Shown here in pieces: positions 6,263 through 36,800 of a DNA stretch of 64,000 nucleotides. The translations under genes were made by a program, and so were the position numbers. Location: NCBI GenBank assembly GCA_030704615.1, contig CM060732.1:41044001-41108000 (forward strand), read 5' to 3'. The notes beneath the pieces are model-generated. The model was given only the letters and a program-made list of their open reading frames with translations. It had not been told where the DNA came from and did no database searches. Origin of the DNA: Takakia lepidozioides (Eukaryota > Plantae > Bryophyta). Within the stretch, counting starts at the first letter, position 1; each line of letters starts with the position of its first letter.

Positions 6263-6535
6263 GTGATGCTGAAGCCGGACAAGGTCACAATTGGTTGCGT
6301 TTGCAATGAATGTGCGAGCTTGGTAGCCCTGAAATTGGACAGCCTCAAAATGGGAATAGTACGAGAGGTATTTGTTCTAAACTCTACCTGGGTGGACATG
6401 TATTTTGAATGTGGTAGCATCAAGGATGACAATGGAGTGTTCGATGATATGGCCGAACAAGATGTGGTGTCTTGGAATGCAATGATCGCAGGATATGCCC
6501 AACATGGTTGTCATAGGAGGGAGGCCCTACAAGTA
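6263..6535 (+). pseudogene. PLS-class PPR fragment
   Basis: KPDKVT..VCNECASL..DMYFECGSIKDDNGVFDDMAEQDVVSWNAMIAGYAQHG. Confidence 0.8.
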
Positions 6536-8599: not shown

Positions 8600-11500
8600 A
8601 ACTGGGGGTTGTACCTCGCATCGTCAGTATGGGGGTCGGTACAATGAGGCCAGCTGCTCTGGTGCCACTGTCTGAATTCGGTTGTGAGTTCGACCAGTAG
8701 TCAATGTCTCTTGTAGTTGTTGTGGAGCTAACAAGCCTTCAACTCTTCTCAGATCACCAATATAAATTGAGATATCACACACCACTCTCCGTGATCAGGG
8801 GCTCTTCTCCAGTACAACTTTCCATTGTCGTTCCTTCACACACTCAGAGAAAAAGACTTGATCAACCTGTACTGGCAATACAAAAGGCTGTTCAGAGGGT
8901 GGTATCATTTGATTGAAATTGATCAACGTGAAGCCACAATCATCTTCCTTCATTGATCTGGGTTGACGACCGACATTTTGGGCCCGTATCCAGGAGCACA
9001 AAAACACTACAGGCCATGTAGTGCCATAGTCAATCTGCAAAATCTCCCTGACAAGACCCACATACCGTACAGATTCCGTCTCATGCTTGAAAACTGATGA
9101 GACTCCACAATCAAAGGATGCCATACTCGATGTGTTCATGCCTGGGGATGTAGCCCTGTAATGGTTGCCATATCCTGACATATTCTTGTATGTCAAGGCA
9201 TAATATGATGGGGGTCTTGAAAGATCCAGTAATTCTTGTCGTACACCATCTTCAAGCACATGTTCTTGAATTCCAGATAGATGTTCCCGTACAACATTTG
9301 GCAGCCAAGCAGCAAATGGAGGACAATCATCCATTTGTGTGGACTCCCCTTCATATTTCTTGGCACAAAATGTCGAGGCTATTTAGCCAACACAGACTAA
9401 GCATGGGGCAGTACAAAAAGATCAAATCAACAAAATATTCAGATCTGAAAGGGTGTGGACTTACTTCAACATATCGGATATGCTTGGATGATTTTGAATG
9501 ATGTAATCGTGTACAATAGCATGCAAGTCACCCAATTTCCGAGGTTTGCCGGCTCCTTCCAAAACTACGCCGGCCACAGATTCTTCCTCATCTGCATCCC
9601 ACACCCTTCGTGCGGTTCCATCATATCCTGCCATATACTCCGTGCAAAATCCTAGAGCTTCATAAAAAATGTATCCTTGAGCCATGCTGCCCTCAGGTTT
9701 TGCCATGTTCCGGACGTACCCTTTCATTTCTTTCATTGCCCGCTCCATGGGGTATATCCAACGTGATGCCACAGGACCACATAAATCGAGCTCGTCCACT
9801 AGGTGGACAAGCAGATGTGTCATCACATCAAAGAATGATTGTGGGAACTCTTTCTCCATTAGACAGAGAGTAACAACTGCTTAATGTTTCAACTCCTCAT
9901 ACTCTGCAGGATTCACTACTTTTGCACACAACCTCCTAAATACATGACATACTCGCAAAATTGTAGTGCGCACACCTGTTGCCATGAGCCCACGAATAGC
10001 TAGCGGTAAATTTTGGTGCATGAACACATGGTAATCATGTGATTTCATGCCAGATAGTTTTTTCTTTACCACGTGGCTTTTGAAAGCTGATGCGTATCCT
10101 GTGGGTACGTTAAGGTTTCGCACAGTGTCCAAGAAAACTTTCAACTCAGCTTCAGTCAGAACATAAGGAGCAGGAGGCATGATTAACGAATCTGCCCTGT
10201 CTGGATATCGTTGCAACCACAATGATGGACGCAGTCCAAGTAATTCAAGATCATGCCGAACCTTCAATGTATCTTTCTCCCCAAAAAGAGTCTTAATGAT
10301 ATTCTTTGCAAAGTTCTTCTCGCAATGCATAGCATCAAACGTATGCCGTATGAGGAGGCCCTCCCAGTAAGGCAAGGCATATAAGATTGATAATCGCTTT
10401 ACTCCGTGAGATTTGGAAGGGTCTGATGGCGTATCTGGTTTCCCCCCTGCTGCTATCCATGCAATAAGGTCAATTGCACGTTTTTTTATTTGTGTTCCCG
10501 CCTGCGTTTGTGGGGCCACTCTAAGCTCAACAGCACCATTGAACAATATTGATCTTCTATACGGATGGTTGTGGGCAAGAAATCTCCGATGGCACAGGAA
10601 CACAGTCTTCGAACATGCATGTAAATGTTGTGAATCCACCTCGGGTCCACAGGCTGGACAACCAGCATAACCTTTAGTAACCTGACCTGCGAGCAAGCCA
10701 TATGCAGGGTAATCATGGATTGACCATAGAAGCAATGCCCGTAGCAAGAATTGGCGTTGTTGGAGAGCTTGGGAAACATTGTAAGCTATGATGCCTCTCC
10801 ACAATTCCTGTAGCTCCTCTACTAGGGGCATCAAATACACATCAATGTTCGTAGATGTAACAGACTCCTTTCCAGGGATAAGGAGTGCTAACATGACGAA
10901 AAACTTCTTTCTCATCAACCATGGAGGCAAATTATAGTTGACCAACATGATGGGCCATGTGCTCCAACTCGTGGATTGAGCACTGTATGGATTTACTCCA
11001 TCTAAGGCTAATCCAAATCGTACATTTCGTGGTTCTGAAGCAAAATCCGCAAATGTGGAGTCAACGTGGGCCCAAGCTTTGCTATCAGCTAGATGTCGAA
11101 CCAATCCATCCTGACTCTTACGTCTGAAGTGCCATGTCATAAGGTGCGCGATTGATTTGCATCGATACATGCGTTTCAACCTTGGGATGACAGGGAAATG
11201 TCGTAGTATTTTTCTGGGTACAGTCCCACGACTAGGAATGTAACGCGACGTCTTGCACTCCGGGCAAAATTCTTCTTTTTCATTCTCCCCACGGATGACA
11301 GGGAAATGTCGTAGTATTTTTCTGGGTACAGTCCCACGACTAGGAATGTAACGCGACGTCTTGCACTCCGGGCAAAATTCTTCTTTTTCATTCTCCCCAC
11401 GGAAGAGTACACAGCCTTGCTCGCAGGCATGGATCTGGGTGTACTGCAATCCCATCTTCGCAATCATAGTTCTAGCTTCATAATTAGTTTTCGGCAGAGA

Positions 11501-11889
11501 ATTATGTTTCGGCAAAAAACTTGTGCGCAACAATCCAAGAAGCTCATCCACAAAGCCATTGGTGCATTTGTGGGTGGTGCACAAGTTGAGCAAGTGCAAA
11601 GTAGCTTCAAATCGGCTGATCGAGCTCCCTTCGTAGAGTTTACACTGAGATTGTCGAAATAGCGTATCGTAGTTGGGGTCAACTCCGTGACTCAGGTTTG
11701 GGCCATTCTCTGCATTCTCTGCATTGTCCATGGATTCTTCCTCGTTGGGGTTGTCTTCGGCCCGAGTTCCACCATTAATCGGATCCTCCCTGTTTGCATC
11801 CACAAACTCAAAAGCTTCCTGCAATGCTCGTTGAATTTCTGCCTCCACACCACCTTCATGATCCGTATTGTTCTCCCTTTCATTAGGCC
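8600..11889 (-). pseudogene. CACTA TnpD-like transposase, main body (Transposase_21, DUF4218 and DUF4216-like regions)
   Basis: Motifs HLADSKAW, RNVRFGLALDGVNPY, STWPIMLVNYNLPPW, DYPAYG, DAMHCEKN, MKSHDYH, FFDVMTHLLVHLV, YPMERAM and EQPFVLPVQVDQVFF. In-frame stop at 9881-9883; intron near 9464. Confidence 0.92.
11185..11400. repeat. Perfect 108-bp in-frame tandem duplication within the transposase
   Basis: RGENEKEEFCPECKTSRYIPSRGTVPRKILRHFPVI occurs twice. Confidence 0.95.
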
Positions 11890-12249
11890 TGTCAAGTTAA
11901 ATAAGCACAGTGTGAAAACAGCTAGAATAAAACTAGTTATTTGTATTTAACACTTGGATTTAGGTCAAGTGTTAAATCAGGTGTCAAGTTTAGTTTGACA
12001 CCTGGTCCGTCTTATCTTCACGAGAGCGGCAGTCGCGCGGCTCATCTTTCTCGAGTTGAGCCTGCGCGACCGAGCTCCTGTGTGCGTTTAGATCTGAGTT
12101 TACTCATGATGGGAGTGTAGGTTGTTGTGGGGTGGAGTCCCCATAGCTTGGGGTGCCCCTGGCTCGACTACTGTTTTAAAGAGTGATGGTTTTGGATTTC
12201 ACATTGTTTCTTGTGTGGAGAGCAGTGTCATTTGTTAGCTTTCTTATCA
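11890..12249 (+). repeat. Terminal repeat A1 (360 bp, LTR-like, TG...CA)
   Basis: Identical by eye to 23254-23613. Confidence 0.95.
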
Positions 12250-12263
12250 CTCGAGAAAGATGA
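12249..12263 (+). promoter_or_regulatory. Putative self-priming primer-binding site
   Basis: ACTCGAGAAAGATGA is the exact reverse complement of 12042-12056 inside the repeat. No TGG-type tRNA PBS is present. Confidence 0.75.
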
Positions 12264-14303
12264 CCTCTTACCTGTGAGTGCAAGGTAGGAGTTGAGGGTT
12301 AGCACTTGTACGATTACCTGTGTGTAAGTAGTGCTTAGTTTTAGAAGCTTAGAAGAAAAAAAAAAAAACAAAACAAAATATGCAGGTTTCGATCAGCGTT
12401 GGTTCTGGCATGAGGCCGCCGGGCATGATGGAGCTACACTGCATGGAAGCAGCCTTTGTTTTGGTCGGTGAGGAGACATCGTGGAGTAGCAGCGATTGGC
12501 CATTGGGAAACTGACCAAGTGCGAGACTTAAAGGAGGAGCCTGTGATCGAGCAGATGGGTAGAACTTCCGTGCCTGGAGATGGCCGGGCTGCTCGCCTTA
12601 GTTCGATGTGCACAGACCAGTGTTAAATTAGAACCAGGACAGACCAGAAGCGGTCAGGAAAGGCAGCGGAAGAGCAGGTGGAGCTGGTGTAGCGGAGCCA
12701 GTTGAAGGAGGAGCTGTAAATCTGCTCCCTCCAGTAAATGCAGCGCCGGCAGGTAGAGCATGGCGCAGCGAGCTGGTTGAAGGTGCAGGGCCCGAGAGAG
12801 AAAGCCTAGCACAAAGCGATGGAGAACGGGGAGCCCATTGCTGGCATATCATCAACACTGCAAAACCAGGAGTCTCACAAATCTTCATGCTACTTGTGAT
12901 TGTGGCTGGGAAAGCTGCTTTCACCTGGTCGATTATCTGCATAAGCAACCAACTTTCTGACAAAAAGGGTTGTTGGGGGCATTGTTGATTTCGGAGAGTG
13001 CAAGGTGCAAAGTCGTTTTTGTTTTTAAGTGCTTCAGGTTTGTACAAAGCCAAGTAGCTGTTGCTGCCTTGCACCTTGGTTCCACCATTTTGATGTGGAA
13101 ACTGGTGGAAAGTCGAATGGTGGTTCACAACCCAGCTTTCAACTCAGTACACTGCCCGAGTCCAAGATTGTGGCGATACAGGTCAAGGGAGCTCCAGCTC
13201 TATTTGTCTCATCATTGAACACTTCCAACTGATCACTTGCCTCTACTGTCATTTCGGCGTCAAGGGTACTTACTTCTGCACAGGCGAGCAGGGGAGGAAA
13301 TGCGAAGACTCGTAGCAGGAGAAGCAATGCTGACGGATGAGGCCAGCGGACGAGAGCCTCCAAGGGTTGATGGAGAGGCGGCGGAAGGAGGCTGCAGATT
13401 GAGTTCCACTTTACTGAGGCAATCGCAAATTCCTGTAGAGACTTGATAACTATATGATTGTCTCTCTTATACTGGAGCTGATGCAGATGGACCCAGGCCT
13501 TGGGTCTACATGCTGAGCATGGTTCACTTTCTTTTTCCTGGCAGTGAAGTCGTCTGTGCCTTGTGGGGGTGGTGACGGGGCAATCTGGTGCCTGTTGTCG
13601 CCGATCCCTGACCTGTAGAATGCACACAAAAGCAAACACGAGCAGTAACAGGAAGGCGGAAACCATTCTAAGCCAACAATAATCGTTGGCGAGAGATGCG
13701 AATTAGACCAAGTTGATGGAACTTCAAGCTGGTCTTGGCTTTGGATTCCATGCAGAGACGGCCACATCACAGCAAGCCGCCTGTCCATAAGCCATGAAGG
13801 TGCTGCGCAGTGCATCTGCTCTTGAAATCGCCCAATTCCTGGTTTGTAGTCTCTAGGTCTCGAGGAGGCCGGCCCACGCGCAGAGAAAGCAAATCGTGAT
13901 ACCCCACCCAACTGAGGTCGAGTGTTGGAATTAACGAGCTCTTGGTGCCTGGAGGATCCTGGAGGGGAACGACCTCGGGAACTCGTAGATAACCTGGGAA
14001 CAGGTTGTAATGGCAAAAGCGTTTTGGTGTTAAAAAAAAAAAAACCTTTTTTGATCTAATTTAAATGTTTAAAGAGCCTGGTTGGTCATATCTTTGTCAA
14101 ATGAGCTCCGTTTGACTCAGTTTTTGAGGGGATATCTGCAGAAAGGGGAAATCTACCTATCTAGACCTGGTTTCTGTTTTTGGGACTCTGCTAAAAATCT
14201 ATGGAATTTTTAGAGTGTGAGTGTGCCATGAAAGATCCACAATCCTGTCTCTAGAACCTGTGCTGGTCTATATGAGAGACAAATTGGTGGGTGTACTCCT
14301 TGC

Positions 14304-15053
14304 ATGGCTGGGGGAAATGAGGACGTAATTGAAGGGCAGGTCTCTTCTCTTAGTCTGTGCACACAAGGGGACAGGATTTATGTTTCCCAAGGAACTCAGA
14401 CTGATTTGAGTGGAGAACAGTTGGACGAGTTGATTGCATACTGGGAGTCAGGCATTAGCAGTAGACAACAGACTGCTGTAGTTGGCATTGAGGGCCTCAA
14501 TATCGCCTTGGACAGTCAGAACTCTGTTGGAGCCAGCAGTTCTGCAGCTGTAGGTGAAATACCAAAGTGGGTGAAAGCTAGGCTTGGAACACAGCCAAAG
14601 ACAGCCCCGGGGACCAAGGTGTTCAGTCACAAGGCCGTGGTGTACTGGAGCAGAGGAGCAGGAGCTACACAAGTTTGTGCAATCAGACATGGTTGCAGCC
14701 GGATACGCTCTGCACAGGGCAACCATGAGCGGGGGTTCATCAGCAATGACATGTTTGTTGTGCGTGAAGGAGATGCAGTCATTCGCAATGAGGACACCCG
14801 CAACCGTCTCAAAGCTTTCGAGTTGAGAGACTATCAGACCCTACCTTTGTTTTCTTTAGTGTTCAGTGAGCGGGAGATAGGGGAGTATTGCTTTGTCTCT
14901 ACCTGGCAGAAAGAGGAGGAGGGTTGGTTAGAGCGAGCTACTGTAGCTTGGGACAAGGTTAGTGGCAGGTTTCTGGACATAGATATACCTCCTACACCTT
15001 ACCATCATGCAGAGCGAGGCACTTTGAGAGAAGTCTGGCAGTTGATAGCATAG
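14304..15053 (+). CDS. Extra 249-aa ORF upstream of gag, unknown function
   Basis: ATG-initiated uninterrupted ORF inside the element; no recognisable motif. Confidence 0.45.
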   Translation: MAGGNEDVIEGQVSSLSLCTQGDRIYVSQGTQTDLSGEQLDELIAYWESGISSRQQTAVVGIEGLNIALDSQNSVGASSSAAVGEIPKWVKARLGTQPKTAPGTKVFSHKAVVYWSRGAGATQVCAIRHGCSRIRSAQGNHERGFISNDMFVVREGDAVIRNEDTRNRLKAFELRDYQTLPLFSLVFSEREIGEYCFVSTWQKEEEGWLERATVAWDKVSGRFLDIDIPPTPYHHAERGTLREVWQLIA

Positions 15054-15565
15054 ATCAGGATTAGATCTTGCTTGGTCGGGCTTCTATTCTTCCCCTCCAT
15101 CTCTGTACTATTTTCATTACCTTGTACTTGTAGTTGCCAAAGCCTCTCTTGGTGGAGGCCAGTCAGTCCGGGGTTTTGGGCTGGGATATTCTGCAGGATC
15201 AGCATTGCAGCTGGATTTTGGTGTGGGGGTGTTGATGTTTTGATTTCTTGTGTTTGGATCCCCCCCAACACCTGCATGCTTGACTGTGCGCCATGTTGGT
15301 TTTGTGTGGGCGCTTGCTTTCATAGGGATTAGGCCGGATTTGATCACCGGTCAATCCTAGAGTATGCTGTCGGTGGTGAGGCTGGAGTGATGACCAGCAA
15401 GACCACCAGTGTTTCTTCTATGGTGAGGCTGGGTTGATGACCAGCCAACCATAGGAGTTCTTGCGGTGGATGCAGGTGCAGGTGCCCTGAGCCACTGGGA
15501 TATGACCCTTAGACTGCAACAGGTGCCCACCCGTGTCACTATTAGATTAGTACTAGAGCCTTATA

Positions 15566-17410
15566 GTGTCACTGGAGGAGGTGCACATTGTGAGTGTCAT
15601 TACGGAGTTACCCAAGGGTTTTGAGGGGAGTACGGCTACAGGCAGTAACAGTGAGAGTGGGTTCACAAGACGAGGTATTCGGTTCAGACCACCTTCACCG
15701 CCACCCTCAATTACTGTAGAGTCAGACACAGGCTCGGAGGCTTCATCAACAGGTGTGCACTTTCATTCGCCATTGTTGTGGGACGACATGGAGGAGATGT
15801 ATGGAGCTACCAAGGGGCCTCGTAGGTACTCTGGAGCTGTGGGCACAATCGAGTTGGATGACTTTATCCAGGAGTTCGACAGCTGGTGTGATTTGCAGCA
15901 GATGCGCAATCCACATCTATTCACCCCATTCATGGCGTGGAAGGGACTGTTCCAGCATTTGGAAGGCCCGCCTATGGACGATTACCACGAGTTCAGGCGA
16001 GGACATGAAGCAGAGATTGAGGAGTGGAGGATGTATTGGTCACCTGACTACATCTCCATTACTCGAGGCATGACGCGACCAGTAGCTGCATCAGTACCAA
16101 TAGCTCCCACTGCCAGCACTAGTAGTGGAGCAGGTAGTGCTGGTACTTCTGCAGGTGGTACCAGTTCAGAAGGTGCTACTACTCCTCCTGCCACAGCTAC
16201 AACACATGTGCCTAGATTCAACCCGGTGGTGGAGTTCTTCCAGGAGTTGCGGAGGAACTACCAAGGTGTACGGACAGAGAAGCTGCGAAGTTTGCAAGAC
16301 TTCCAGCGCAAACCCAGTGAGAGCCTGCGAGAGGCGTACACTCGTATGAGGCGCTTGATAAGTGTGACCCAAGGGGTTACTGAAGCTCAGGCAATCCAGT
16401 TTTGGTATGGAATTCTGGACAAGGAGCTCAAGAGAAGGGTGCGAGATGCAACCCTGTTACAAGCAGCCCAACCCACATTAGCAGATGTGTTTCTGCTGGC
16501 TGAGCGGATTGAGCTCAACATGGTGGAGGAGCGAGTTGTTACAATTGGATTTGGTAAGGACATGCCTGTACGGGGCACAGCTGTCAGCCCACAAGCACAA
16601 GGGACTGCCCAACAGCGTGGTCAGGGGGGCAAGGTTGCCCAGCCCAAGTTCCATGGAGCTTACAGGGGACCTCAGGTGCAGAGGCCCGTGGCATCTTTTG
16701 CAGGCCAACAGCAACCAGGGGTGATATGTTGGACATGTGGAGGACCCCATGTCAAGAGAGATTGCCCAGAGAGTGGCAGAAGGCCGGCACAAGCACAGCC
16801 TGCACAGTTGCAGTGTGGGCATTGTGGCAAGTATGGGCATGGAGATGCCCAGTGTTATGACTTGCATCCTGAGTTGCGCCCAGGCCAGTTCCAAGGGAAC
16901 AATGGTGGCCGGGGGCGAGGTGGACCAGCCCAAAGAGGACGAGGTGGTCGGGCACGAGGTGCAGGCCAAGGGCAACCTCCACATGGCCAAGGACGCGGAG
17001 GTCAGGGTGTTGACCAAGGCATGGCCAATCGGCTTCAGCAGCTAGAGCAGAGGCTCGCTGCCATGGCTATAGCTCAGGCGGTACCGGCTCCCAGGCGGGA
17101 TGGCCCACCTCCTGCTCCTGAGGGAGGAGATATGGGCGGAATGGGATTCATGTGCGGAGCAGCACTACCATTAGAGCAGGTGGAGTCTGCTGCAGCCGTG
17201 ACTCGAGGAGCAACACGAGTTCCTGAGCCACGAGGTGCAGAGGTGGAGTTGGATCCACAACGTGGGGAGGCAAGCCGTCAGGCAAGGCTGCCTCAGTCAT
17301 TCACCTTGGCGGAGACAGTGTCAACGCCATCCATGGCACCTAGTTCTCGCCCGACTGTTACCGAGGCGGAGGTTACTATGCCATTGGGAAGAGCTACCGT
17401 GCAGCACTGA
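15566..17410 (+). CDS. gag: Gag polyprotein
   Basis: Capsid-like FQRKPSESLREAYTRM; two zinc knuckles (CWTCGGPHVKRDC, CGHCGKYGHGDAQC); RGG-rich segment. Confidence 0.9.
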   Translation: MSLEEVHIVSVITELPKGFEGSTATGSNSESGFTRRGIRFRPPSPPPSITVESDTGSEASSTGVHFHSPLLWDDMEEMYGATKGPRRYSGAVGTIELDDFIQEFDSWCDLQQMRNPHLFTPFMAWKGLFQHLEGPPMDDYHEFRRGHEAEIEEWRMYWSPDYISITRGMTRPVAASVPIAPTASTSSGAGSAGTSAGGTSSEGATTPPATATTHVPRFNPVVEFFQELRRNYQGVRTEKLRSLQDFQRKPSESLREAYTRMRRLISVTQGVTEAQAIQFWYGILDKELKRRVRDATLLQAAQPTLADVFLLAERIELNMVEERVVTIGFGKDMPVRGTAVSPQAQGTAQQRGQGGKVAQPKFHGAYRGPQVQRPVASFAGQQQPGVICWTCGGPHVKRDCPESGRRPAQAQPAQLQCGHCGKYGHGDAQCYDLHPELRPGQFQGNNGGRGRGGPAQRGRGGRARGAGQGQPPHGQGRGGQGVDQGMANRLQQLEQRLAAMAIAQAVPAPRRDGPPPAPEGGDMGGMGFMCGAALPLEQVESAAAVTRGATRVPEPRGAEVELDPQRGEASRQARLPQSFTLAETVSTPSMAPSSRPTVTEAEVTMPLGRATVQH

Positions 17411-19773
17411 CACCTGCTACCAAGGCTAGTGCAGCCGGTGTGTTATTGGGAGCAGCCACCTCTGTGTGTCAAGCCCCACTGTTCTCGGCGACCATGATTG
17501 CGACGCCGGGAGTGAGACCAGCTGCAGTGTTCAGACTAGCAGCAACACTCTGCGAGAGTGGAGAGGTCACTTCATCTTCTGCGGAGTTAGTGGAAGGTGT
17601 AGTGGCAGAGGGATCCTCGGATTTGAGGGTCAAGACTGCCACGGCAGTGCCCTGGCAAGCTGCAGCTGCCAGATTGACGGAGCTGCCAGCTAGGCCAGCC
17701 TTTGAGCGCGCCATGGTGACACCTGGAGTTGTCTTGTTAGACAACCAGGGAGGCATTTTCACTTTGAGTGGACCGGCAGGCAAGAAGTACCGGCCACTGC
17801 GGGTCTTGTTGGACTCAGGAGCTCAGCCACTGATGTTGGGCAGAGCTGCTATTGCAGGTTTGGGCCTCATGGAGGCGGATATGGAGCCTTGTCCTTTCCA
17901 GATACAGACATCTCTGGGAGGATCAGAGCAGGCTCGCGGCATGACACGGCATCAGTTGGCTATTAGACTGCAGCCGGATCATCCTGTAGATGGCTCAGTG
18001 ATGCGAGCCAAGGCCATTGTGACAGACGCGGTCTCTTACGATGTCCTCGTTGGTGGGGCAGTGTTATACCCCATGGGCTTCACCCTGGATTTCTGGGAGG
18101 AGTCAGCATCCTACAGGCCTGGATGGCAGTCAGGGGATGGTCGCCGTGCACAGCTCCCTGTGACATTCATTGGGGGTATTGCAGCTGCTCAGCGGGGCAA
18201 GATGCCAACACTAGCCGCCTTCACAGCTGCAGTCAGCTGGCCTGGAGAGTTGCTGGAAGGCAATGCCCATGCAGAGGATGTGCCACCTCCAGCAGAGCAG
18301 GATGACATGCATGGTACGGCGGAGTTGCCTGCCATGGTTGCTCACACTCCGTTGTGGGGTACGAGCAAGGATTTGCAGCACGCTGCTGATGGACGGGTGC
18401 AACAAGCTTGGTTAGAAGCTTTTGTACCGTCAGGAGAGGAGGAGAGTGCGGTGATTGCACCAGGGCCACCTCAGTTGTCGCCATTGGACACCACACCTCT
18501 TGTGTGGCAGCGACCGGATGAAGGCATATGCCTTCTGGACTTATTTGGCGGGATCAGCACTGGATTGGCTGCAGTGCTGCAGGCAGGTGTACGAGTTCGA
18601 CGTTACCTGTATGTGGAGAGGGATGAGACTGCACGACGCGTCTCACTGCGCCATGTTGCTCAGATGGTGCAGCAGCATCCTGAGTTGTTGCCGGTGTCTG
18701 CAGTTCGTGGATATCAGCAGGCCTTGCCAGCAGACATTGCGTTGCTGGGGGCGCAGGATTTGGAGCGGGTTGGCTCCATTGATCTGGTAGTGGCAGGTTG
18801 GCCCTGCCAAGGGCATTCATCAGCCGGGCATGGCAATGGATTGCGAGACTCGAGGACGGGTCTGTTTTGGGAGATGGTGCGGATTTTGCGCCACTTGCAG
18901 CTTCATCAGGCTGTATCTCCGGCATACATCTTGGAGAATGTGCCACTGATGGGTGATTCTCGGGCCAGGGTGATGGCCAGTGTGCATCAAGTCCGGTCGT
19001 GGCTTGGGTCAGCAGTGTTGCTGGATGCAGCTGCAGTGGGGTCACGGGCTCATCGTCCACGACTATGGTGGACTAACTTGATGCCACCCGCACTGCTCAA
19101 GCGTGCATTTGATGGGGTGCAGCGGCCAGCACACCTCACCGTGGATGGCATTTTGGACACAGGAAGGCAGTCTCAACGTGTGAGACACGATGACCGTTCG
19201 CCTTTGGCAGTGGTCAACAGGGTGGGTCAACCACGAGCAGCATTACCTACACTGCTCAGCTTCCCAGGATCCCATGCTTTTCGGGATGGTGGACCTGGCC
19301 TCCTGTGGGATGCTCAGTTGCAGCAGTTAGTGGAGCCTAATGCCGACGAGCGAGAGCGGGCTATGGGGTTTTCCACTGGGACCACGGCGGTGCCTTCTCT
19401 TTCTGAGGCATCACGTCGTCAGGTGTTGGGGCAAGCAATGGATCTCAATTGCTTGACCTGGATTGTCAGCTTGGCTATGGCTGAGCAACGTAGAGTGCGG
19501 AGTGCACTTCCCTTGATGGTCTCTCTGCCTACCGAGACGGTACAGGCAGCGAGTGGGGGCGAGCCGGTGAGGACCACGAGGTGTAGACATCCATGGCACA
19601 TGTGGGAGGTGCTCGAGGTTCAGAGGGAGTTGGCAGCGAAGGCAGCTGTGATGGATGAGGTTGGGGATTCTTCTCGGGATGAGGAGGTTCTCAATGATGA
19701 GATGATGGGGCAGGATGAGGCCTTGTCATTGACTGAGCAGGAAGGGGGTACTGCTCAAGAGGTTGCAGCATAG
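17344..19773 (+). CDS. pol: Pol part 1: aspartic protease plus C5 cytosine DNA methyltransferase (DNMT3-like, ~18523-19480)
   Basis: Protease VLLDSGA. MTase motifs I LDLFGGISTG, II VERDE, IV AGWPCQGHS, VI ILENV, VIII AHRPRLWWTN, IX ERERAMGF, X RRQVLGQAM. The frame is open from 17344 and is -1 relative to gag. Confidence 0.93.
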   Translation, partial: FSPDCYRGGGYYAIGKSYRAALTPATKASAAGVLLGAATSVCQAPLFSATMIATPGVRPAAVFRLAATLCESGEVTSSSAELVEGVVAEGSSDLRVKTATAVPWQAAAARLTELPARPAFERAMVTPGVVLLDNQGGIFTLSGPAGKKYRPLRVLLDSGAQPLMLGRAAIAGLGLMEADMEPCPFQIQTSLGGSEQARGMTRHQLAIRLQPDHPVDGSVMRAKAIVTDAVSYDVLVGGAVLYPMGFTLDFWEESASYRPGWQSGDGRRAQLPVTFIGGIAAAQRGKMPTLAAFTAAVSWPGELLEGNAHAEDVPPPAEQDDMHGTAELPAMVAHTPLWGTSKDLQHAADGRVQQAWLEAFVPSGEEESAVIAPGPPQLSPLDTTPLVWQRPDEGICLLDLFGGISTGLAAVLQAGVRVRRYLYVERDETARRVSLRHVAQMVQQHPELLPVSAVRGYQQALPADIALLGAQDLERVGSIDLVVAGWPCQGHSSAGHGNGLRDSRTGLFWEMVRILRHLQLHQAVSPAYILENVPLMGDSRARVMASVHQVRSWLGSAVLLDAAAVGSRAHRPRLWWTNLMPPALLKRAFDGVQRPAHLTVDGILDTGRQSQRVRHDDRSPLAVVNRVGQPRAALPTLLSFPGSHAFRDGGPGLLWDAQLQQLVEPNADERERAMGFSTGTTAVPSLSEASRRQVLGQAMDLNCLTWIVSLAMAEQRRVRSALPLMVSLPTETVQAASGGEPVRTTRCRHPWHMWEVLEVQRELAAKAAVMDEVGDSSRDEEVLNDEMMGQDEALSLTEQEGGTAQEVAA

Positions 19774-21450
19774 CAACCACGGGACGCGTCCTCTACCTCT
19801 AAGCCCACTGGACTTAAGGTTGCAGTTACGGAGGACAATTGGGAGCCTGATATTGGACCCATTGTCACCGGAGGAGAGAGACGACGTATACGGCGGTTCC
19901 TGAGGGCTTACAGGAATTGCTTTGCCTTCAGTTTGAAGGACTTGGGAGCACTGAAGGGTCAAGAGATCCGTATTGAGTTGGCCACTGACACGCCAATCTT
20001 TCGGAGACCCTATAGATACAGTGACATGGAGAGGTCTTTGATTCAGATGAGGACTCAAGATCTCTGGGAGGCAGGTTTGGTGGAGCTCTCTGGTGGAGAG
20101 TATGCTTCAGCCACAGTGATGCCAGCTAAGAAGGATGTCTATGGCAATTGGACGGAGAGACGTATGTGCGGTGATTACCGGCCTGTAAATCGTCAGACCA
20201 AGTCCGATAGGTATGCCATGCCAACACCAGAGGAGATCTTTGATGCCATTGGGCATTCCAAGGTCTTTAGCACGTTGGATTTACGATCCGGATATCACCA
20301 GTTGCCGATCAAGGAGGCGGATAAGCAAAAGACGGCATTCTGGGGGATCAATGAGCACGGGAAGGATTGCCTATACCAGTGGCGGTTCTTACCATTTGGG
20401 CTTAAAAACGCTCCCGCTGAGTTTCAAAGAGTCATGGACAGGATTCTAGCAGGGGTGGAGTTTGCTCGGTGCTACATAGATGACATCATCATCTTTAGTG
20501 CTACGGTGGAGGAGCATGAGAGACACCTTCAGGGGGTATTTGAGCGCTTGAGGACGCACGGATTGAAGTTACATCCGGGCAAGTGCAAGTTTTTCCACAA
20601 CCAGATTGAGTATCTGGGTCACATGATATATCCTGGAGGATTGGGGGTACAGCAGACTAAGGTAGAGTCCATTGCACAGGTTCCACGCCCCACGGATGTG
20701 AGCCGAGTTCGAGCTTTCATGGGGTTAGCAAACTATTACAGACGGTTTGTTAAGGGATTTAGTGCCATTGCAAAGGCTCTAACCAAGCTGACCAAGGTGG
20801 ACCAGGAGTGGCAGTGGGAAGATGAGCAAGAACAAGCTTTTCAAGAGCTCAAGGCGAGGTTGACCTCGGCGCCCATCTTGAGACGACCTATCAGGGGGCG
20901 TCCTTTTCAGCTGCATACAGATTGGAGCATGCTGGGGCTTGGAGCGGTGCTCACACAGGTGGATGATGAGGGAAGAGAGTTCGTAGTGGCTTATGCTAGC
21001 CGCTCGAACAATGCTGCAGAGTCTAAGTATAGCTCATATGAGGGAGAATGCTTAGCTGCAGTGTGGGCCGTGGCACACTTCAGGTGCTATCTATACGGCA
21101 ATCTCTTCACCCTTGTCACGGATCACCAACCACTCAAGTGGTTGATGGAGTCAGACAAGCTTACGGGGAAGCTTGCACGGTGGGCACTCATCCTTCAAGA
21201 GTATGACTTTCAGGTGGTGCATCGACCGGGTTTGGTCAATCGAAATGCAGATGGGTTGAGTCGCAATCCATGCACGAGCCAGCAGGATGACACTGGAGCT
21301 CGGTGGCATGGTGAGACGGACGAGGAGATGGTGCCCGGATGGCATGCATCTGCATTTCTGTGTATCTTGGCAGCGGAAGGCCAGGTTGGACCTACAACAG
21401 GGATGACTGTAGATCAAGTGTCTGAGGACCCTGAGGCAGCAATGAGCTAG
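19774..21450 (+). CDS. pol: Pol part 2: reverse transcriptase and RNase H (in frame after a single TAG)
   Basis: RMCGDYRPVN, LDLRSGYHQ, LPFGLKNAP, YIDDII; RNase H TDWS, EGECLA, TDHQPL, NADGLSR. Confidence 0.95.
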   Translation, partial: QPRDASSTSKPTGLKVAVTEDNWEPDIGPIVTGGERRRIRRFLRAYRNCFAFSLKDLGALKGQEIRIELATDTPIFRRPYRYSDMERSLIQMRTQDLWEAGLVELSGGEYASATVMPAKKDVYGNWTERRMCGDYRPVNRQTKSDRYAMPTPEEIFDAIGHSKVFSTLDLRSGYHQLPIKEADKQKTAFWGINEHGKDCLYQWRFLPFGLKNAPAEFQRVMDRILAGVEFARCYIDDIIIFSATVEEHERHLQGVFERLRTHGLKLHPGKCKFFHNQIEYLGHMIYPGGLGVQQTKVESIAQVPRPTDVSRVRAFMGLANYYRRFVKGFSAIAKALTKLTKVDQEWQWEDEQEQAFQELKARLTSAPILRRPIRGRPFQLHTDWSMLGLGAVLTQVDDEGREFVVAYASRSNNAAESKYSSYEGECLAAVWAVAHFRCYLYGNLFTLVTDHQPLKWLMESDKLTGKLARWALILQEYDFQVVHRPGLVNRNADGLSRNPCTSQQDDTGARWHGETDEEMVPGWHASAFLCILAAEGQVGPTTGMTVDQVSEDPEAAMS

Positions 21451-22906
21451 GTGGCGCCAAAGATATACATGAGGATTCAGTTGTGTTGGACTACCTCCGC
21501 ACGGGAGACACGGCAGCCACTGTGACTGCCAGGAGAGGGATCGGATCCTACAACGAGCCAAGAGGTTCAGGTGGGAGGGGACACACCTGCTCCGAGTGTG
21601 GGAGGATGGTCGAGTGAGGATTGTGCCTCACCCAACACAGCGGGCACGGTTAGTGCGGCATGCCCATGAGGAGTTGGGGCATTTTGGGGTGCGACGCACT
21701 CATAGTCTACTGCAGGGGCAGTATTGGTGGCGTGGTATGCACACAGAGGTACAACATTTGTGGCTAGGTGCATGGTGTGTGACAGGGTGCGTGCTTCATT
21801 CAACGCCCCTACTCCACAATTGCACCCTCTTCCGATCATGGGATTGGGCTACAGGTGGAGTCTTGACTTCGCAGGGCCGTTGCCACTGACCATGCGCCAC
21901 AACAAGTACGTGTTGGTGATGGTGGAGCACTTCTCCAAGTGGATTGAATTGGTTCCATTGCCTGATAAGGCTAGTGAGGGAGCTGCGTATGCATTCCTGG
22001 ATTGTGTGCTTAGCCGATTCGGTGCTCCAGCTGAGGTACTCACGGACCAAGGGAGAGAGTTCTTGGGGGAGTTTCAGGCTTTGTGTGACAAAGGCCTTGA
22101 TAGACCACCGCACCACTTCTCGGGATCATCCTGAAGCCGATGGCTTGGCAGAGAGAGTTGTTCAGACAGTAAAGAGGGGTTTGCGCAAGTATGGCTTGCA
22201 GAAGGGACACCTAGGAGATTGGGACCTTCAGTTACCCTGGTTAGCCATGGGCTACAGGTTCAGCAAGCAAGCATCACTTGCCTCTTTCTCACCATACTTT
22301 CTTCTCTTTGGCCGAGAGCCGGATTTGCCTACATCCATTCGCAGAGAAGCTGCTACAGTTCTTAACCTTGACGATCCGGACGTGTGGGCACGTGCATGTG
22401 AGCAGTGTGCAGAGTTGTTCAAGAGAGTCATGCCCATGGCTTTCGAGAACCTTGCCATTGCACAACATCGTGATACGTTGAGGTATGCTACCATACGTGG
22501 TGGGGGCTATCGTCCTGGGGTTCGGAGATTCAACCCTGGTGACTATGTCTATCTGCAGCAGACTGCTCCTACGACCCTGGATGTGACTGCAGGACGTGTT
22601 ATTTTGAGGGTTCGAGAGGTCTTGCCCTCAGGCGTCTTGGTCTTGGAGGGTCGGGATGGCATCACTTGGAAGGACCATGTGCGTAATTGTGCGCCATGTC
22701 ACCTTCCGAATGTCGATGGCAGGATTGACCCAAACCTGGCAGTGGTATCTGCAGGTTTGAGGTGCATGTTGTGTGGGTCTGCTAAAGGGGCAGCCACCAT
22801 GCTGGTATGTGATCGGTGCTCTAGAGGTTGGCATATGGGATGCTTGACTCCACCTCTTGAGATGGTTCCGGATGGGGATTGGTTATGTCCACATTGCATT
22901 GGATAG
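21445..22906 (+). pseudogene. pol: Pol part 3: DDE integrase with C-terminal PHD finger (frameshifted)
   Basis: HHCC (HEELGH...CMVC), D (SLDFAGP), D (TDQGREF), E (GLAERVV); PHD CMLC..CDRC..HMGC..WLCPHC. Frameshifts near 21440, 21530, 21760 and 22093. Confidence 0.9.
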
Positions 22907-23155
22907 TGGGAGTGGATACAACCATGGGAGGTTAACAAGAAACGCAAGACCCAGCTACTAGGAGACCTTGAACACACGAGATTTTGGCTCAAGTTCATAG
23001 ATTGCAAGACGGCGACTAACGATGGGGCTACTCTTGTACCCGGCCTCTTGGTCTATAGAGTTTGAGTACAATAGGGACAGTGATAGAGGACTTAGTACGG
23101 CTGTGGCTATTACATCTTGTAGCTATCTGGAGGTAGAGGGACCTATCCACCAGCT

Positions 23156-23165
23156 AGGGGGGCGA
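23156..23165 (+). promoter_or_regulatory. Polypurine tract
   Basis: AGGGGGGCGA directly before t-TGTGGC (start of repeat B1). Confidence 0.7.
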
Positions 23166-23166
23166 T

Positions 23167-23251
23167 TGTGGCAGACTACTTTATTGTGCATATATGTGTG
23201 GTGTGGTTTGGACAACGATGTAGTTGTGTAGCGATATGTATGCGCACGACA
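23167..23251 (+). repeat. Repeat B1 (85 bp, TG...CA)
   Basis: Matches 23615-23699 with one substitution. Confidence 0.95.
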
Positions 23252-23253
23252 GC

Positions 23254-23613
23254 TGTCAAGTTAAATAAGCACAGTGTGAAAACAGCTAGAATAAAACTAG
23301 TTATTTGTATTTAACACTTGGATTTAGGTCAAGTGTTAAATCAGGTGTCAAGTTTAGTTTGACACCTGGTCCGTCTTATCTTCACGAGAGCGGCAGTCGC
23401 GCGGCTCATCTTTCTCGAGTTGAGCCTGCGCGACCGAGCTCCTGTGTGCGTTTAGATCTGAGTTTACTCATGATGGGAGTGTAGGTTGTTGTGGGGTGGA
23501 GTCCCCATAGCTTGGGGTGCCCCTGGCTCGACTACTGTTTTAAAGAGTGATGGTTTTGGATTTCACATTGTTTCTTGTGTGGAGAGCAGTGTCATTTGTT
23601 AGCTTTCTTATCA
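23254..23613 (+). repeat. Repeat A2 (360 bp)
   Basis: Copy of 11890-12249. Confidence 0.95.
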
Positions 23614-23614
23614 T

Positions 23615-23699
23615 TGTGGCAGACTACTTTATTGTGCATATATGTGTGGTGTGGTTTGGACAGCGATGTAGTTGTGTAGCGATATGTATGCGCACGACA
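23615..23699 (+). repeat. Terminal repeat B2 (85 bp)
   Basis: Copy of 23167-23251, followed by the TSD GGCC. Confidence 0.95.
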
Positions 23700-24275
23700 G
23701 GCCCCTGCCCAAACTCAGCCCGATCCTCCTCGTCATCAGAATCAGCATGTCCCTGCATCCCGTGTTTCCCACGGTTCATTCACAGTATATGTAGATTATG
23801 ACATGTGGGCAAATGTAGTCACGGCTATCACTACATCACTTCGATTTGAGCAACGACATTGTGACACATAGCAGATAGTCTAGTGACATAGTCATGTTCC
23901 TATATGTGTTTATGACTACACGACTACAACTAGCCAACGACATATCGACATGTGTATAAAGGGCAGTCATAGAAACAACTACATGACTACAACTCGCCAA
24001 TCAACTTTCGACATGTGGAGTGGTGAAGTCATGGCTCTACTACCACACCAAAATGGTTTCAAAATTCAAACTTGGAGATTGCTAAGTCCTGAAGGACAGT
24101 GTGCTTCCTGTGGATGTACCAGAATAGTACAGCTGCGCAAAGTTGGATCCCTCTTATGTTTGAGGTAGTGCTTCTTCACTGTCTCCAAGAACTGCCATTT
24201 GGATCCATGACATTCAGTGCAATTGCAAAGCATTTTCTTGTTCCCATTTGATATTACGCCTCCTCGAGTCGCCAT
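23700..24275 (-). pseudogene. CACTA transposase 5' part (exon 1 at 24275-24120, exon 2 starting 23752)
   Basis: MLCNCTECHGSKWQFLETVKKHYLKH is a transposase-associated Cys/His domain. A phase-0 GT-AG intron joins it to GHADSDDEED, which continues across the Gypsy insertion. Confidence 0.75.
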
Positions 24276-24904: not shown

Positions 24905-27900
24905 ATGGAGGTATTTTTGCAGGATTACGGTTGTGAAACCGCGTCGGAAGGCACGGTCTCGTGGAGCTCCTATCAAAGGTCCGGCAAGACGAAGTTCCGA
25001 ACTCGTACAACTGCCAAGCCCAAAGTAATTTTTGACATAGACGACGACGATCCTTACCTCCCACCACAAAAGGGAGCAGTACAGGAAGGGACTGGGGATT
25101 CAACCGACTCCATGTCGGAGGACGCAGATGCAGGCACAGTGGCGCACGCAGGGAAAAAACGTGGTGCAGGCACACCGTCTCCATTTGTGAGTGCATTTTA
25201 TGGGCATATTTGTAGTCTTTCACCACTTATTAGGTGAGCACAACCTCATGAGTGCCGAATAGTATTATGCGGACTTCATTAGGGGCCATGATCCGGCGAG
25301 GGATTGTTTAAATACTTGGCAAATTTAATTGCGTGTCAATATTCTTCTTCTTTCTGATTCTTTCATTGTATCTATGATCCTTCTATAGCCATCAACTATC
25401 AGCCTGATGAGATCATTGAAGAGCTCAAAGAAATCCTGGCCAAGCTATTTGAATATGTCCCACGTGACTTGGATGATATTGCGTTACGAAACACAATAGG
25501 CACAATTATGAAGTCCCGACGGCATGACTTGCACAAGGAATGACAAAAAGGTGGGGGGAAATCCATGGACGTGTCTGATGAGCATTGGAAGAGCCTCACC
25601 TCCTACTGGAGTACAGAACAGTACTCCAAAGTGCAGTCCCACTTGAAGACAGCAAATGCATGCATTCAAAATCACACCAAAACGGGCCGGGGAGGGAAAG
25701 ACAGCATGTAGGCACGCTTAGTAAGAACCCTCATGAGCTTTCTCACTGTACTCCTCTCAATACATTCTATGAATGTCAATCTTTAATGTTGGTTGGCTTA
25801 TGGTTTAGTATTTCAAGCAATTTTGGAGCTGAGCTTTAGTAAAAAATTATTTATGTGCTGACATGATTGTTCAATCTTGACGTTGCATTATCTTCAGTGG
25901 TTTTGTTATGGTTTTGTATGGTTGAGCCATTGAGTACAAATTGCACATTGGCTTCATATTGTTTGTTATGTTGGGTTCATATGTAGGAAAGAGAAACTGG
26001 GTGCCCCCCTACGTTGGCTGACATACAAGAATACTCTGTCTCAAGGATGTCAGCTGGGAGCGATAGGCGGGTAAGTGAGACTCAACAACCATGTGCTTTC
26101 AGTACATGTGTGCCCTGTGTATTATAGCACGTCTGGTTGCTCAAGTTCTTAGTGAATGATCTAAGTGTTGAAAGAATGTACTCATAAGAGTGCCAGTGTG
26201 TTGATTGACAAAACTGAGTTTGGTACCTCTAACCACTTCCTGGTTTGGACTGAGATCTGTTGGGTTTGGGTTTGTTGATTTTCACTATAAGCCAACATTG
26301 TATCCCTAGGATGGCCCTGTTTGGCCACGTCTAAGTCCATCAAGGGGCTTAGTAGAGGGTTAACACATTTTACTTCAGAAATTGCTGGGTGTGATCATTG
26401 TATCCCTAGGACTGCATGTGTGGTAGAAGGACCTGTGCCTGAATTTACTGCTTTGCTAGAACAAAAGTGGGACCAGTATTTTTGTACAGGTGAACATGTT
26501 GTAGTCATGGTTGCCAACGTTTGATGAATATGTGTCTGGTTGGTGTGATCACCCAATATGGATTGATAGGTAAGGTGCATGATGTTGTGCTCAAATATTG
26601 GCAGGTGGAAAAAAACTTGCTGGAACATGTTGTCTTATGCATTTTGGTCTATATGGTAGGAAGCGAGTGTAGCGTATTTTGCCATAGTCGGAAAGGTGGA
26701 TGCAATGGAAAAACAAGTCGAACATGATGGACTCTCAGAAGGCAATGATGCTCAAATTGGGGGTTAATGTCCCCCTGGCAGGTCCAGTGACATCTGGCAT
26801 GAATGGTTCTGGTGTCATTGTATCAAAAAGATTGGCGGAGCGGTTTGAGACCGTAACTGGCGATCAATCTCAACTCTCCCCTAACCCTATCACTGATGAT
26901 GGTTTGCATCTGTCCAAGCAGTTCGCCATAGGGAATGCAGGCACTGAGGCAGCAATTTCAAGTCAGCCTGCCTCTGGTACAAAGGAAGGTACTGATCATG
27001 GTGCCCGTGATATGTCTGAGAAGCCTGGTACACCGGATTCAGGTATGCATGATTCCTTGGGGAATTCACATGGGGAGGATGGGACAGATGCTACGGCATT
27101 TCAATTGGTTTTGCATCCCACTAGGGCTGATATGTTGAAGCCAGGTGAGTGTTTACAGTCTCCCCCACCTCGCAAGCACTTGCTAGTTTTGGATGTGAAT
27201 GGATTGCTCTGTGAATCCATTCATGTTGCTAGTGGTCCAACAACTGTTCCCAAAGGATTTGTGGGGAAGTTGTGTGGGATGAAAATGGTAGTTTTGAGAC
27301 CCAACTGTATTTCTTTTTTGCAAAAGTGTTTTGCACACTTTGAGGTGGCAGTGTGGTCTTGCTGCAAAGCTCGCAACTTCATTCCGATGGTGGACTTTAT
27401 TTTCAAAGGGCACACTAATCTTATTTTCCAGTGGGATGCCCTTTACTGTGAAGAACTTACTGACCCATTGGCTAGGGGGGCTGATGCAAAGCCCATATAT
27501 TTGAAGAACCTATCAAGAGTGTGGGCAGAGTGGCCAGAATGGGGTCCTGAAGACACTCTTCTTGTTGATGACACACCAAGAAAGACATCAAACAATCCTC
27601 CATTTAGTGGGATGTATCCGGAGCCATGGAAAATGCGATCATCAGGGCCAAAAGATGGCTATCTACTCGATTGTTGTGGCCGTTCTTGGAGAGGGCAAGC
27701 AAGACTCCTAGTATTCCACAGTTTCTGAAGTCTGAGCCTCTCTTTGGAGAACAACCCTACAATTCTGCTCTGTGTAATCGTCAGAAGGTACAACAATGTA
27801 ATGTAAGTCTGGTCTACATTTGGAATTCTTGGGTTGCTTGTGAATTGCATGAGCAGTGGGTTTCTCTTGAGTGAGCTATGTAGCTAGTGTATTTCAGGTT

Positions 27901-36400: not shown

Positions 36401-36559
36401 CATTGAGCTCATGAATATGTTAGAGATTCAACTTTTGCCTTGCCCAATGTGTCCAGCTGGTGTCCAGCTCCTTGGAGTTGTAACTGGTGTATTGAAGCTG
36501 GCAGTTGGGAATCTGGTTTCTACGTTTCTACCAGATAACAGGTAAAGGGCAAGCGGGTC

Positions 36560-36800
36560 CATGCTGACCTCAGTAAAAGTGGAATTGCGCCGGACATCAT
36601 TCTGGAGAGTACTCTGGTCGACATGTATGCCAAATGTAGGATCATGAAGGATGCGCGTCAAGTGTTTGACAATGTGGCTCAGCGAAATGTGGTCTCACAT
36701 ATAGTAGAGAGTCTCTAGAAATGTATGAGCAAATGCTACTGGAAGGGGTGATGCCTGACTGGGTGACGTTCATTTGTGTTCTCTATGCTTGTGTGAACCT
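36560..36800 (+). pseudogene. PPR fragment
   Basis: DIILESTLVDMYAKC..MKDARQVFDNVAQRNVVS..EMYEQMLLEGVMPDWVTFICVL with stops. Confidence 0.75.

Follow-up and report, generated by a model that had tools for sequence, protein, structure and literature searches.

A DNMT3-like cytosine methyltransferase ahead of a conserved in-frame stop codon in a Ty3/Gypsy-type retrotransposon with permuted repeats from Takakia lepidozioides

Retrotransposons carrying a cytosine methyltransferase of the DNMT3 type have been described from the alga Klebsormidium nitens (KnitGypsy-Dnmt3) and from Symbiodinium (SymbioDIRS-Dnmt3) (PMC5890265). Why retrotransposons carry an enzyme that normally silences them has been an open question since 2018; the difficulty of experiments in the known hosts and the failure of the algal enzyme to act in yeast account for part of this. 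Here we analyse a stretch of 64,000 nucleotides from the bryophyte Takakia lepidozioides (assembly GCA_030704615.1, contig CM060732.1, positions 41,044,001 to 41,108,000 of the forward strand; hereafter the window, whose own coordinates are used throughout). It contains a Ty3/Gypsy-type element of 11.8 kb, at 11890-23699, that encodes a DNMT3-like domain.

KnitGypsy-Dnmt3 resembles this element in its intronless, non-permuted DNMT3-like domain within a Gypsy-type element, in its DIRS-like repeats of the order A-coding-B-A-B, in its domain set, and in purifying selection (Ka/Ks below about 0.2, with 0.08-0.20 between lineages here). It differs in having an algal rather than a land-plant host, and in that the methyltransferase lies in the Pol open reading frame (ORF) together with reverse transcriptase (RT) and RNase H, whereas here a stop codon followed by CAR-YY stands between them. 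The accessible text on KnitGypsy-Dnmt3 does not mention a self-priming site, a CA-nn-TG junction, a 4-bp duplication or a PHD finger, and the two elements are compared by description only (PMC5890265). SymbioDIRS-Dnmt3 likewise combines a DNMT3-type domain with A-ORF-B-A-B repeats, but it uses a tyrosine recombinase and its enzymes methylated CG in yeast (PMC5890265), while the window element has a DDE integrase, a target duplication and an activity that is predicted. Split direct repeats are also common to the window element and the DIRS, Ngaro and PAT retrotransposons. The latter have a tyrosine recombinase in place of a DDE integrase and make no target duplication; the window element, in contrast, has DDE motifs and 4-bp duplications, and a Pfam search of its long frames gave no tyrosine recombinase match.

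The Tf1/Sushi and Tcn1 chromoviruses share with the window element the Ty3/Gypsy domain order, a priming predicted to use the element's own RNA and not a tRNA, and a chromatin reader on the integrase (PMC6317226). Their reader is a chromodomain, for which the window element gave no match; it has a PHD finger instead, as well as permuted repeats and the methyltransferase. Both a cytosine methyltransferase and a chromatin reader are likewise encoded by the EpiLTRs, long terminal repeat (LTR) retrotransposons of Cymbomonas and Euglena, but their enzyme is sister to DNMT4 and accompanied by a DAM domain and a chromodomain, and their authors set them apart from streptophyte Gypsy-DNMT3 elements (bioRxiv 10.64898/2026.05.21.726589). 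Later papers speak of 'streptophytes', citing de Mendoza 2018 (PMC12344493; bioRxiv 10.64898/2026.05.21.726589). Our literature search found no report of land-plant or chlorophyte members, or of the stop, priming or junction anatomy, although closed-access papers, Repbase and the 2018 supplementary figures may hold some; the name 'KnitGypsy' was found in one paper only.

The methyltransferase domain and the stop codon behind it

The initial annotation, made from the letters alone, had proposed an intact DNMT3-like methyltransferase embedded in the Pol of a land-plant retrotransposon. An uninterrupted, non-permuted C5-cytosine methyltransferase domain was indeed found at 18523-19480 (+) (PF00145, E 1.1e-12, Pfam search), within a frame of 809 open codons at 17344-19773 (+) that carries the protease motif LLDSGAQ (17806-17826) upstream. 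Its motifs start at 18535 (LDLFGG), 18610 (YVERDE), 18793 (AGWPCQG), 18925 (YILENV), 19048 (AHRPRLWWTN), 19348 (ERERAMGF) and 19414 (RRQVLGQAMD), and the canonical order holds for the catalytic motifs FxG, PC, ENV, RxR, IX and X, in the customary numbering. Across 237 related domains, decayed copies included, G-W/F-P/E-C was present in 205, ENx in 213 and HRxR in 218.

Among solved structures DNMT3A ranked first, both with the single sequence (E 6e-11) and with a profile of 24 sequences (E 2e-24), followed by DNMT3B/C, DRM (E 7e-13 to 4e-10), M.HhaI (E 8e-8) and DNMT2. An AlphaFold model of the domain (predicted local distance difference test, pLDDT, 87) matched DNMT3A with a Foldseek E value of 2e-18. 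When 48,161 chains were compared, DNMT3A/B gave Z 27.3/27.2 with a root-mean-square deviation of 2.6-2.8 across 270-278 residues, the next family Z 23.8, and DNMT2 Z 20-21. Alignment with DRM/DRM2 was confined to the first 135-142 residues, and the circularly permuted motif order of the DRM type was not found; DRM2 aligns to residues 1-142 only, which a permuted enzyme would be expected to do. By sequence profile and modelled fold, the domain is thus a real, non-permuted DNMT3-like one with DNMT3A/B as its nearest relatives. It shares the catalytic fold and motif order with host DNMT3 of non-flowering streptophytes (PMC6453930) and with animal DNMT3A/B, but it lies inside a polyprotein without DUF3444, PWWP or ADD, PF00145 being the sole Pfam match in the 17344-19773 frame. 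Identity with DNMT3A/B is 21-24%.

The placement of the domain in Pol was right in that it lies between protease and RT, but an in-frame TAG (19771-19773) separates it from the latter. The next codons are CAA CCA, matching the type I readthrough consensus UAG-CAR-YYA (PMC5382211, PMC2194720). We examined 46 close loci, the window included, defined by a DNMT identity of at least 48% and the presence of the RT start. A stop (TAG or TAA) followed by CAR-YY was found in 40 of them, 132-153 nt upstream of RT and with RT in frame; after merging of duplicates the count was 34 of 40 loci, in five synonymously diverged lineages, although most positives belong to a single Sphagnum-type family. Among the six exceptions, a second stop replaces CAR in two, two have TAC, one has GAG and one carries a deletion. 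The same context occurred at only 8 of 479 other in-frame stops of these loci. The 44-51 codons from the stop to RT remain in frame, and Gag-protease-DNMT proteins end 66-172 aa past the domain in 24 of 27 cases, five from Marchantia (1278-1281 aa) sharing the end position.

From these counts, ORF1 likely yields Gag-protease-DNMT as the main product, with RT-integrase as an occasional readthrough product. Because the domain ends ORF1 before the conserved stop, it is predicted at the level of Gag and not of Pol. Such an in-frame stop also divides an abundant from a rare product in type I (tobamovirus) UAG-CAR-YYA readthrough and in the suppression known from SIRE1 and murine leukaemia virus (MuLV) (PMC5382211, PMC2194720); there it stands between gag and pol or pol and env, and here after protease and methyltransferase, before RT. 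A high dose of the methyltransferase may itself be under selection, though the position of the stop alone is not proof, as the protease also lies upstream.

Layout of the element and its integration

The element starts with TGTC, ends with GACA and is flanked by GGCC. Its parts follow in the order A1, copy-specific segment, extra frame, gag, protease, DNMT, stop, RT, RNase H, integrase, PHD finger, purine tract, B1, GC, A2 and B2:

9881-11885 (-): CACTA tnp2 transposase frame, the insertion target (PF02992, E 2e-70)
11886-11889 (+): left 4-bp target-site duplication GGCC (from the empty-site joint)
11890-12249 (+): repeat A1, 360 bp, TGTC start and TCA end, predicted promoter-proximal U3+R+U5; equals A2
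12042-12055 (+): 14-nt segment pairing with the primer-binding site, predicted RNA 5' end and self-primer (0 of 2000 shuffles reach 14 nt)
12250-12263 (+): predicted self-priming primer-binding site adjoining A1; pairing kept, with other sequences, in four other families
12350-14030 (no strand): segment absent in most sister copies, an insert or captured DNA between A-rich tracts (X1 depth 34-151; no Pfam match)
14232-15053 (+): extra 273-codon frame 5' of gag, present in sister copies
15788-17410 (+): gag, weak PF03732 match below the cut-off, two CCHC-like knuckles by eye; in the protease frame in intact relatives
17725-18155 (+): aspartic protease, LLDSGAQ at 17806-17826; relatives match PF13650/PF13975
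18523-19480 (+): DNMT3-like C5-cytosine methyltransferase (PF00145, structure searches, AlphaFold model)
19771-19779 (+): TAG CAA CCA, in-frame stop in CAR-YYA context, predicted programmed readthrough (consensus PMC5382211, PMC2194720)
19921-21260 (+): RT (YIDD at 20473) and RNase H, in the DNMT frame (PF00078, PF17917, PF17919)
21450-22720 (+): DDE integrase with HHCC finger, frame-broken, motifs across three frames; intact relatives match rve and Integrase_H2C2
22757-22903 (+): PHD finger at the integrase end (PF00628, E 1e-10)
23155-23164 (+): polypurine tract adjoining B1; a G-run here in 22 of 23 loci with PHD
23165-23251 (+): repeat B1, 87 bp, CACGACA end; one difference from B2
23244-23257 (+): internal junction CACGACA-GC-TGTC, 10-bp palindrome, predicted integrase attachment site; 2-bp spacer in 14 of 14 long-form loci
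23254-23613 (+): repeat A2, identical to A1
23613-23699 (+): repeat B2, abutting A2 (one base ambiguous), GACA end (compared with B1)
23700-23703 (+): right target-site duplication GGCC (from the empty-site contig)

The gag-protease-RT-RNase H-integrase order, DDE integrase, purine tract, TG..CA ends and target duplication are those of Ty3/Gypsy elements. In place of two complete terminal LTRs there is a permuted repeat, with A on the left and B-A-B on the right. The nearest solved PHD fingers to that of the element are those of CHD4, PHF12, KDM5A/B, ATXR5 and PHF21A, and it also resembles UHRF1; the fingers of CHD4, KDM5, PHF21A and UHRF1 are readers of unmethylated H3K4.

Insertion appears recent, as the annotation had proposed from the A repeats: A1 and A2 show no differences over 360 bp, B1 and B2 differ at one of 87 bases, and a contig exactly free of the element was present in runs X1, X2 (one sample) and X6. 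Its joint corresponds to 11884-23699; five letters fit both sides, and the TG..CA ends set the duplication at 4. The contig differs from the flank by 5 letters on each side, and it may be allelic or else stem from a further copy of the CACTA transposase gene. Contig depth in X1 was 8,900-38,000 over the element core, DNMT included, against 12-45 in bins of the flank and insert; these roughly three orders are a sign of an abundant family and not a copy number. The family is abundant, and sister copies carry the domain, whose absence from them would have counted against the annotation.

The word 'intact' proved apt for the domain but not for the copy, which has five frame changes: one between gag and protease (17344-17410) and others at about 21440, 21530, 21755 and 22090 in the RNase H-integrase part. 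Apart from the TAG at 19771-19773, there is no premature stop in the long gag, protease-DNMT and RT-RNase H frames. Because gag and protease form a single open frame in the intact relatives L033, L060 and L081, the gag/protease change is private or an assembly error. The frameshift makes a Gag-DNMT product from the gag start impossible for this copy, which would have been moved in trans as a broken element, unless the frameshifts are assembly errors.

Some observations concern the insert and the target. Contigs of X6 match parts of 12350-14030 and then continue into other sequence, for which reason the segment may be captured host DNA. The 273-codon frame at 14232-15053 (+) had no Pfam, atlas or locus match and is absent from related families. 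The CACTA tnp2 frame (9881-11885, -) is split near its start, the remainder being open over about 670 codons with a 108-bp in-frame tandem duplication at 11185-11403; an ATG-led frame at 23779-23702 (-) could be its first codons.

The 14 nt adjoining A1 are complementary to 12042-12055 inside A1. Such pairing, of differing sequence, was found in 10 of 19 left ends (six at 0 of 500 shuffles) and in the collapsed contigs L033 and L081; its length is 14 nt in the window, 16 in L043 and L047, 12 in L059 and L063, 15 in L033 and 12 in L081. The pairing segment lies 26-33 nt downstream of TATAAA in six loci, and a purine tract lies upstream of B1 in 22 of 23 loci reaching B1. The internal junction reads (C/T)A(C/T)GACA-nn-T(G/A)TCA with a 2-bp spacer in 14 of 14 long forms (13 distinct), the element ends match it, and the A2-B2 join is flush or almost flush. 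Eight complete elements retained both ends, with an exact 4-bp duplication in six, one mismatch in another and none in the last. In the distant clade the ACGACA of the ends is present in triplicate, spaced by 15 bp (L059:14443-14480 and relatives), an array resembling the subterminal binding sites of DNA transposons.

Transcription would begin around 12042, within A1; by pairing with the site after A1, the initial 14 nt of the RNA would serve as primer of the minus strand, a mode of priming also predicted for Tf1/Sushi and Tcn1 elements (PMC6317226). The plus strand would start at the purine tract before B1, and ordinary reverse transcription would then give B-nn-A...ORFs...B-nn-A. The integrated form is a permutation of this expected cDNA, with ends matching the internal junction, and the simplest reading is that integrase cuts the internal site. 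Comparison of the copies thus suggests integration through CA-nn-TG instead of the cDNA ends: integrase would cut after CA in the left repeat, and the actual termini of the cDNA would become linked, in a 2-LTR circle or by repair, to yield A-ORFs-B-nn-A-B with a 4-bp duplication. Tetramers of HIV-1 integrase can cut the LTR-LTR palindrome internally (PMC1905944).

Short A-ORFs-B forms also occur (8, against 13 long ones): L014, L016, L021, L028, L032, L055, L065 and L070 end after B1, without A2-B2, and two of them keep the 4-bp duplication. They fit 1-LTR circles and B1xB2 recombination alike and do not discriminate. Bases resembling the primer site between A and B in L042 were considered as a scar of a circle junction and set aside, as a deletion explains them equally.

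Relatives, range and selection

A search among 1.84 billion representatives gave 265 relatives of the DNMT domain at E 1e-30 or better. Named relatives belong to Marchantia polymorpha (many, 52-76%), M. paleacea, Riccia, Calypogeia (75%), three Sphagnum species and Closterium. The 180 matches listed (7,992 candidates scored per search) included no vascular-plant name, which is a weak negative, and none of the matches listed was named K. nitens. In 207 proteins the domain stands before RT in 62 (type A) and between RNase H and integrase in 86 (type B; for example P0079 and P0052), 59 being too short to tell; SymbioDIRS-Dnmt3 likewise shows two positions within Pol (PMC5890265). Two of ten type-B clusters looked up bear the names Scenedesmus and Hariotina, both chlorophytes.

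Type A comes out as a single clade both in a quick tree of RT (17 of 59 rows, SH-aLRT 99) and in a DNMT tree made with FastTree (48 against 44 rows, support 97), so that the two show the same split. In the DNMT tree the window falls in one group (support 100) with loci of Calypogeia, Marchantia and the Sphagnum type. Both trees were thinned at 75-85% identity and leave out partial domains; they have no outgroup, for which reason the direction of the DNMT move between the types is not read from them; the DNMT tree contains element domains alone, with no host DNMT3 or DRM. The annotation's view that the lineage persists in an embryophyte stands, given the land-plant host and the layout shared with KnitGypsy-Dnmt3. 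By sequence, however, the lineage is no lone survivor: it is widespread in bryophytes and green algae.

For the domain, comparison of the window with ten Sphagnum-type loci gave a pairwise ratio of nonsynonymous to synonymous substitution (dN/dS) of 0.08; the ratio is 0.09 within the set L033, L035, L046 and L081, and about 0.2 between the two groups where dS is unsaturated; for RT and RNase H it is 0.02-0.05 where dS is measurable. Judged by these ratios, the domain is under purifying selection between lineages, in contrast to the neutral evolution that would have spoken against the annotation.

Five Marchantia gene models, Mp4g09160, MpVg00370, MpVg00540, Mp5g06330 and Mp5g06860 (proteins P0004, P0530, P0531, P0537 and P0538), are Gag-protease-DNMT frames of 1278-1281 aa with all catalytic motifs kept, and 4 of 15 listed members of a Marchantia protein cluster are on the V sex chromosome. 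A whole retrotransposon contig (L081:1-9285) sits in a Synechococcales bin, and P0230, an Obscuribacterales protein, is of the same element type; both are likely binning contamination that mimics a bacterial methylase. A viral or bacterial origin of the domain was considered and rejected: phage methyltransferases match only partly (22-51%, short segments), the only strong match in a prokaryote genome is the L081 contig, and related RT was not found in viral contigs.

Possible roles of the enzyme

From the identity and position of the domain, the conserved stop context, purifying selection, the repeat layout and the 4-bp duplication we infer a cycle in which Gag-protease-DNMT would be made abundantly and protease would free the methyltransferase inside the particle. 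The co-packaged enzyme would act on the element's new cDNA and deliver the copy pre-methylated, most likely marked like silent host DNA, while integrase would be guided by its PHD finger towards chromatin that lacks methylation at H3K4, a specificity suggested by the structures nearest to the finger. On balance, we consider it somewhat more likely than not that the enzyme is cut free in the particle and methylates the new cDNA.

Several observations weigh against this account. No element-specific loss of CpG was found that would support self-methylation, observed/expected CpG being 0.51 in the element, 0.48 at 24000-64000 of the window and 0.47-0.50 in the PPR and LINE (long interspersed nuclear element) frames described below; depletion of CpG or CHG was dropped as a mark of self-methylation, as nothing element-specific was seen. 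Expressed in yeast, the enzyme of K. nitens produced no methylation, a result that its authors call inconclusive (PMC5890265). The full CAR-YYA is present in just 5 of 40 stop contexts, the 35 Sphagnum-type ones ending in C or T, and TAA stands for TAG in 11 of 40. The Sphagnum-type family reads CAA CCC and has an ATG two codons (six bases) past the stop, which makes reinitiation possible there. Stop-CAR-YY was found in 0 of 18 distant loci and is missing from several long proteins too, so that the stop is not needed for retention of the domain; DNMT and RT share one uninterrupted ORF in the distant clade and in P0043 and P0070. Of 19 left ends, the nine older ones lack the self-primer pairing; no TATAAA stands upstream of the pairing segment of the window, and the A end of L033 and L081 was placed by eye. 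A symmetric 2-LTR circle predicts a mirror product, A-B-nn-A-ORFs-B, seen at 0 of 27 left ends (24 distinct), and the model therefore needs an asymmetry. In the standard model the left repeat becomes double-stranded first, and it may be this repeat that is cut. Among old copies of one family dN/dS is 0.58 for DNMT and 0.50 for RT, a decay that is expected after insertion.

Expression of RT-integrase by reinitiation, splicing or an internal promoter, with a real stop and DNMT still at Gag level, would suit the ATG and the missing final A of the Sphagnum-type family, and the surroundings of an in-frame gag-pol stop in the Candida element Tca2 failed to direct readthrough in yeast (PMC2194720). 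We nevertheless regard it as improbable: the window, L033/L035, L046 and L081 lineages keep CAR-YYA with no ATG at that place, and the stop-to-RT stretch stays in frame. The enzyme released from the abundant Gag-protease-DNMT product could also work in trans instead of on particle cDNA: its targets would be chromosomal copies or the site of insertion, and it would serve as a brake on copy number. Self-restraint is among the hypotheses of de Mendoza et al. (PMC5890265), and the abundance of the family in its host would fit, but the methyltransferase has no targeting domain, the PHD finger being on the integrase past the stop, and a brake on all copies would be hard to keep under selection on single elements; such a role appears unlikely.

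Retention for a non-catalytic role (nucleic-acid binding, oligomerisation, particle structure) or for RNA modification, with no DNA methylation, would accord with the yeast result for K. nitens, with the lack of a CpG signature and with the replacement of Pro before the catalytic Cys (E-C) in 50 of 99 type-B and 16 of 73 type-A domains. We think it unlikely, given that roughly 87-92% of the 237 domains retain the motifs of the catalytic Cys, Glu and Arg, that the modelled fold is that of DNMT3 (Z 27) and not DNMT2, and that the related SymbioDIRS-Dnmt3 enzymes did methylate CG. An active enzyme might instead have a mechanical task, CG methylation or binding at the CACGACA end selecting which of the two internal CA-nn-TG sites is cut or blocking self-integration of cDNA or circle. 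The CG-bearing ACGACA is kept across lineages that have only some 40% of DNMT residues in common, even though most such elements show a CpG depletion to 0.33-0.6, and it is tripled in the distant clade; only one of the two possible products is seen; and methyltransferase and split repeats co-occur in both clades examined and in K. nitens (PMC5890265). Conserved ends, however, are explicable by integrase recognition alone, the left end TGTCA is mostly without CG at the mirror place, and the asymmetry may stem from the order of second-strand synthesis noted above, which leaves this task with little probability in our estimate.

With methylation of the particle cDNA kept as the favoured role, a wider picture can be offered tentatively, as possible rather than probable. 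A green-lineage-wide Ty3/Gypsy group, from chlorophytes to bryophytes, would encode a DNMT3 ahead of a leaky stop, so that it is packaged at capsid stoichiometry, and would integrate via the internal palindromic CA-nn-TG instead of the cDNA ends, each new copy being a circular permutation of its LTR; the enzyme would pre-methylate the cDNA and might set the cut site.

The rest of the window bears on the host. An open PLS-E-DYW PPR frame of 705 codons (39275-41392, -) has named matches in a lycophyte, gymnosperms, mosses, a liverwort and two angiosperms; its natural named matches are all from land plants (49-66%), which bears out the land-plant host of the annotation. Decayed PPR arrays with a 303-bp period lie at 51000-52850, 57600-60850, 36540-36800 and 6270-6510, and frame and arrays together read as a PPR gene cluster that is in turnover. 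LINE-type endonuclease and RT frames (53440-55911, +) are separated by one in-frame stop (54586-54588). A dispersed repeat of about 1 kb, with several partial copies, recurs in inverted orientation at 37060-38731 and 56205-57206 (90-99% identity). An intron-less frame at 26688-27728 (+) matches the NIF-type phosphatase PF03031 (E 6e-12), and tandem repeats occupy 3516-4048 (mixed units of 33/136 bp) and 53117-53539 (three 141-bp units).

The lineage is now found in land plants, and several of its full-length Gag-protease-DNMT frames are annotated as hypothetical genes in Marchantia polymorpha, a host with methylomes and with met1 mutants showing transposon de-repression (10.1101/363937); these relatives make the predicted methylation of cDNA testable. 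These elements also inflate the DNMT counts of bryophyte annotations and are probably missed by LTR finders that need two full LTRs. Their terminal anatomy points to an internal junction as the routine substrate of their DDE integrase; in retroviruses such use is a side reaction. Given the conserved stop, the enzyme should be an abundant product where a rare one had been expected.

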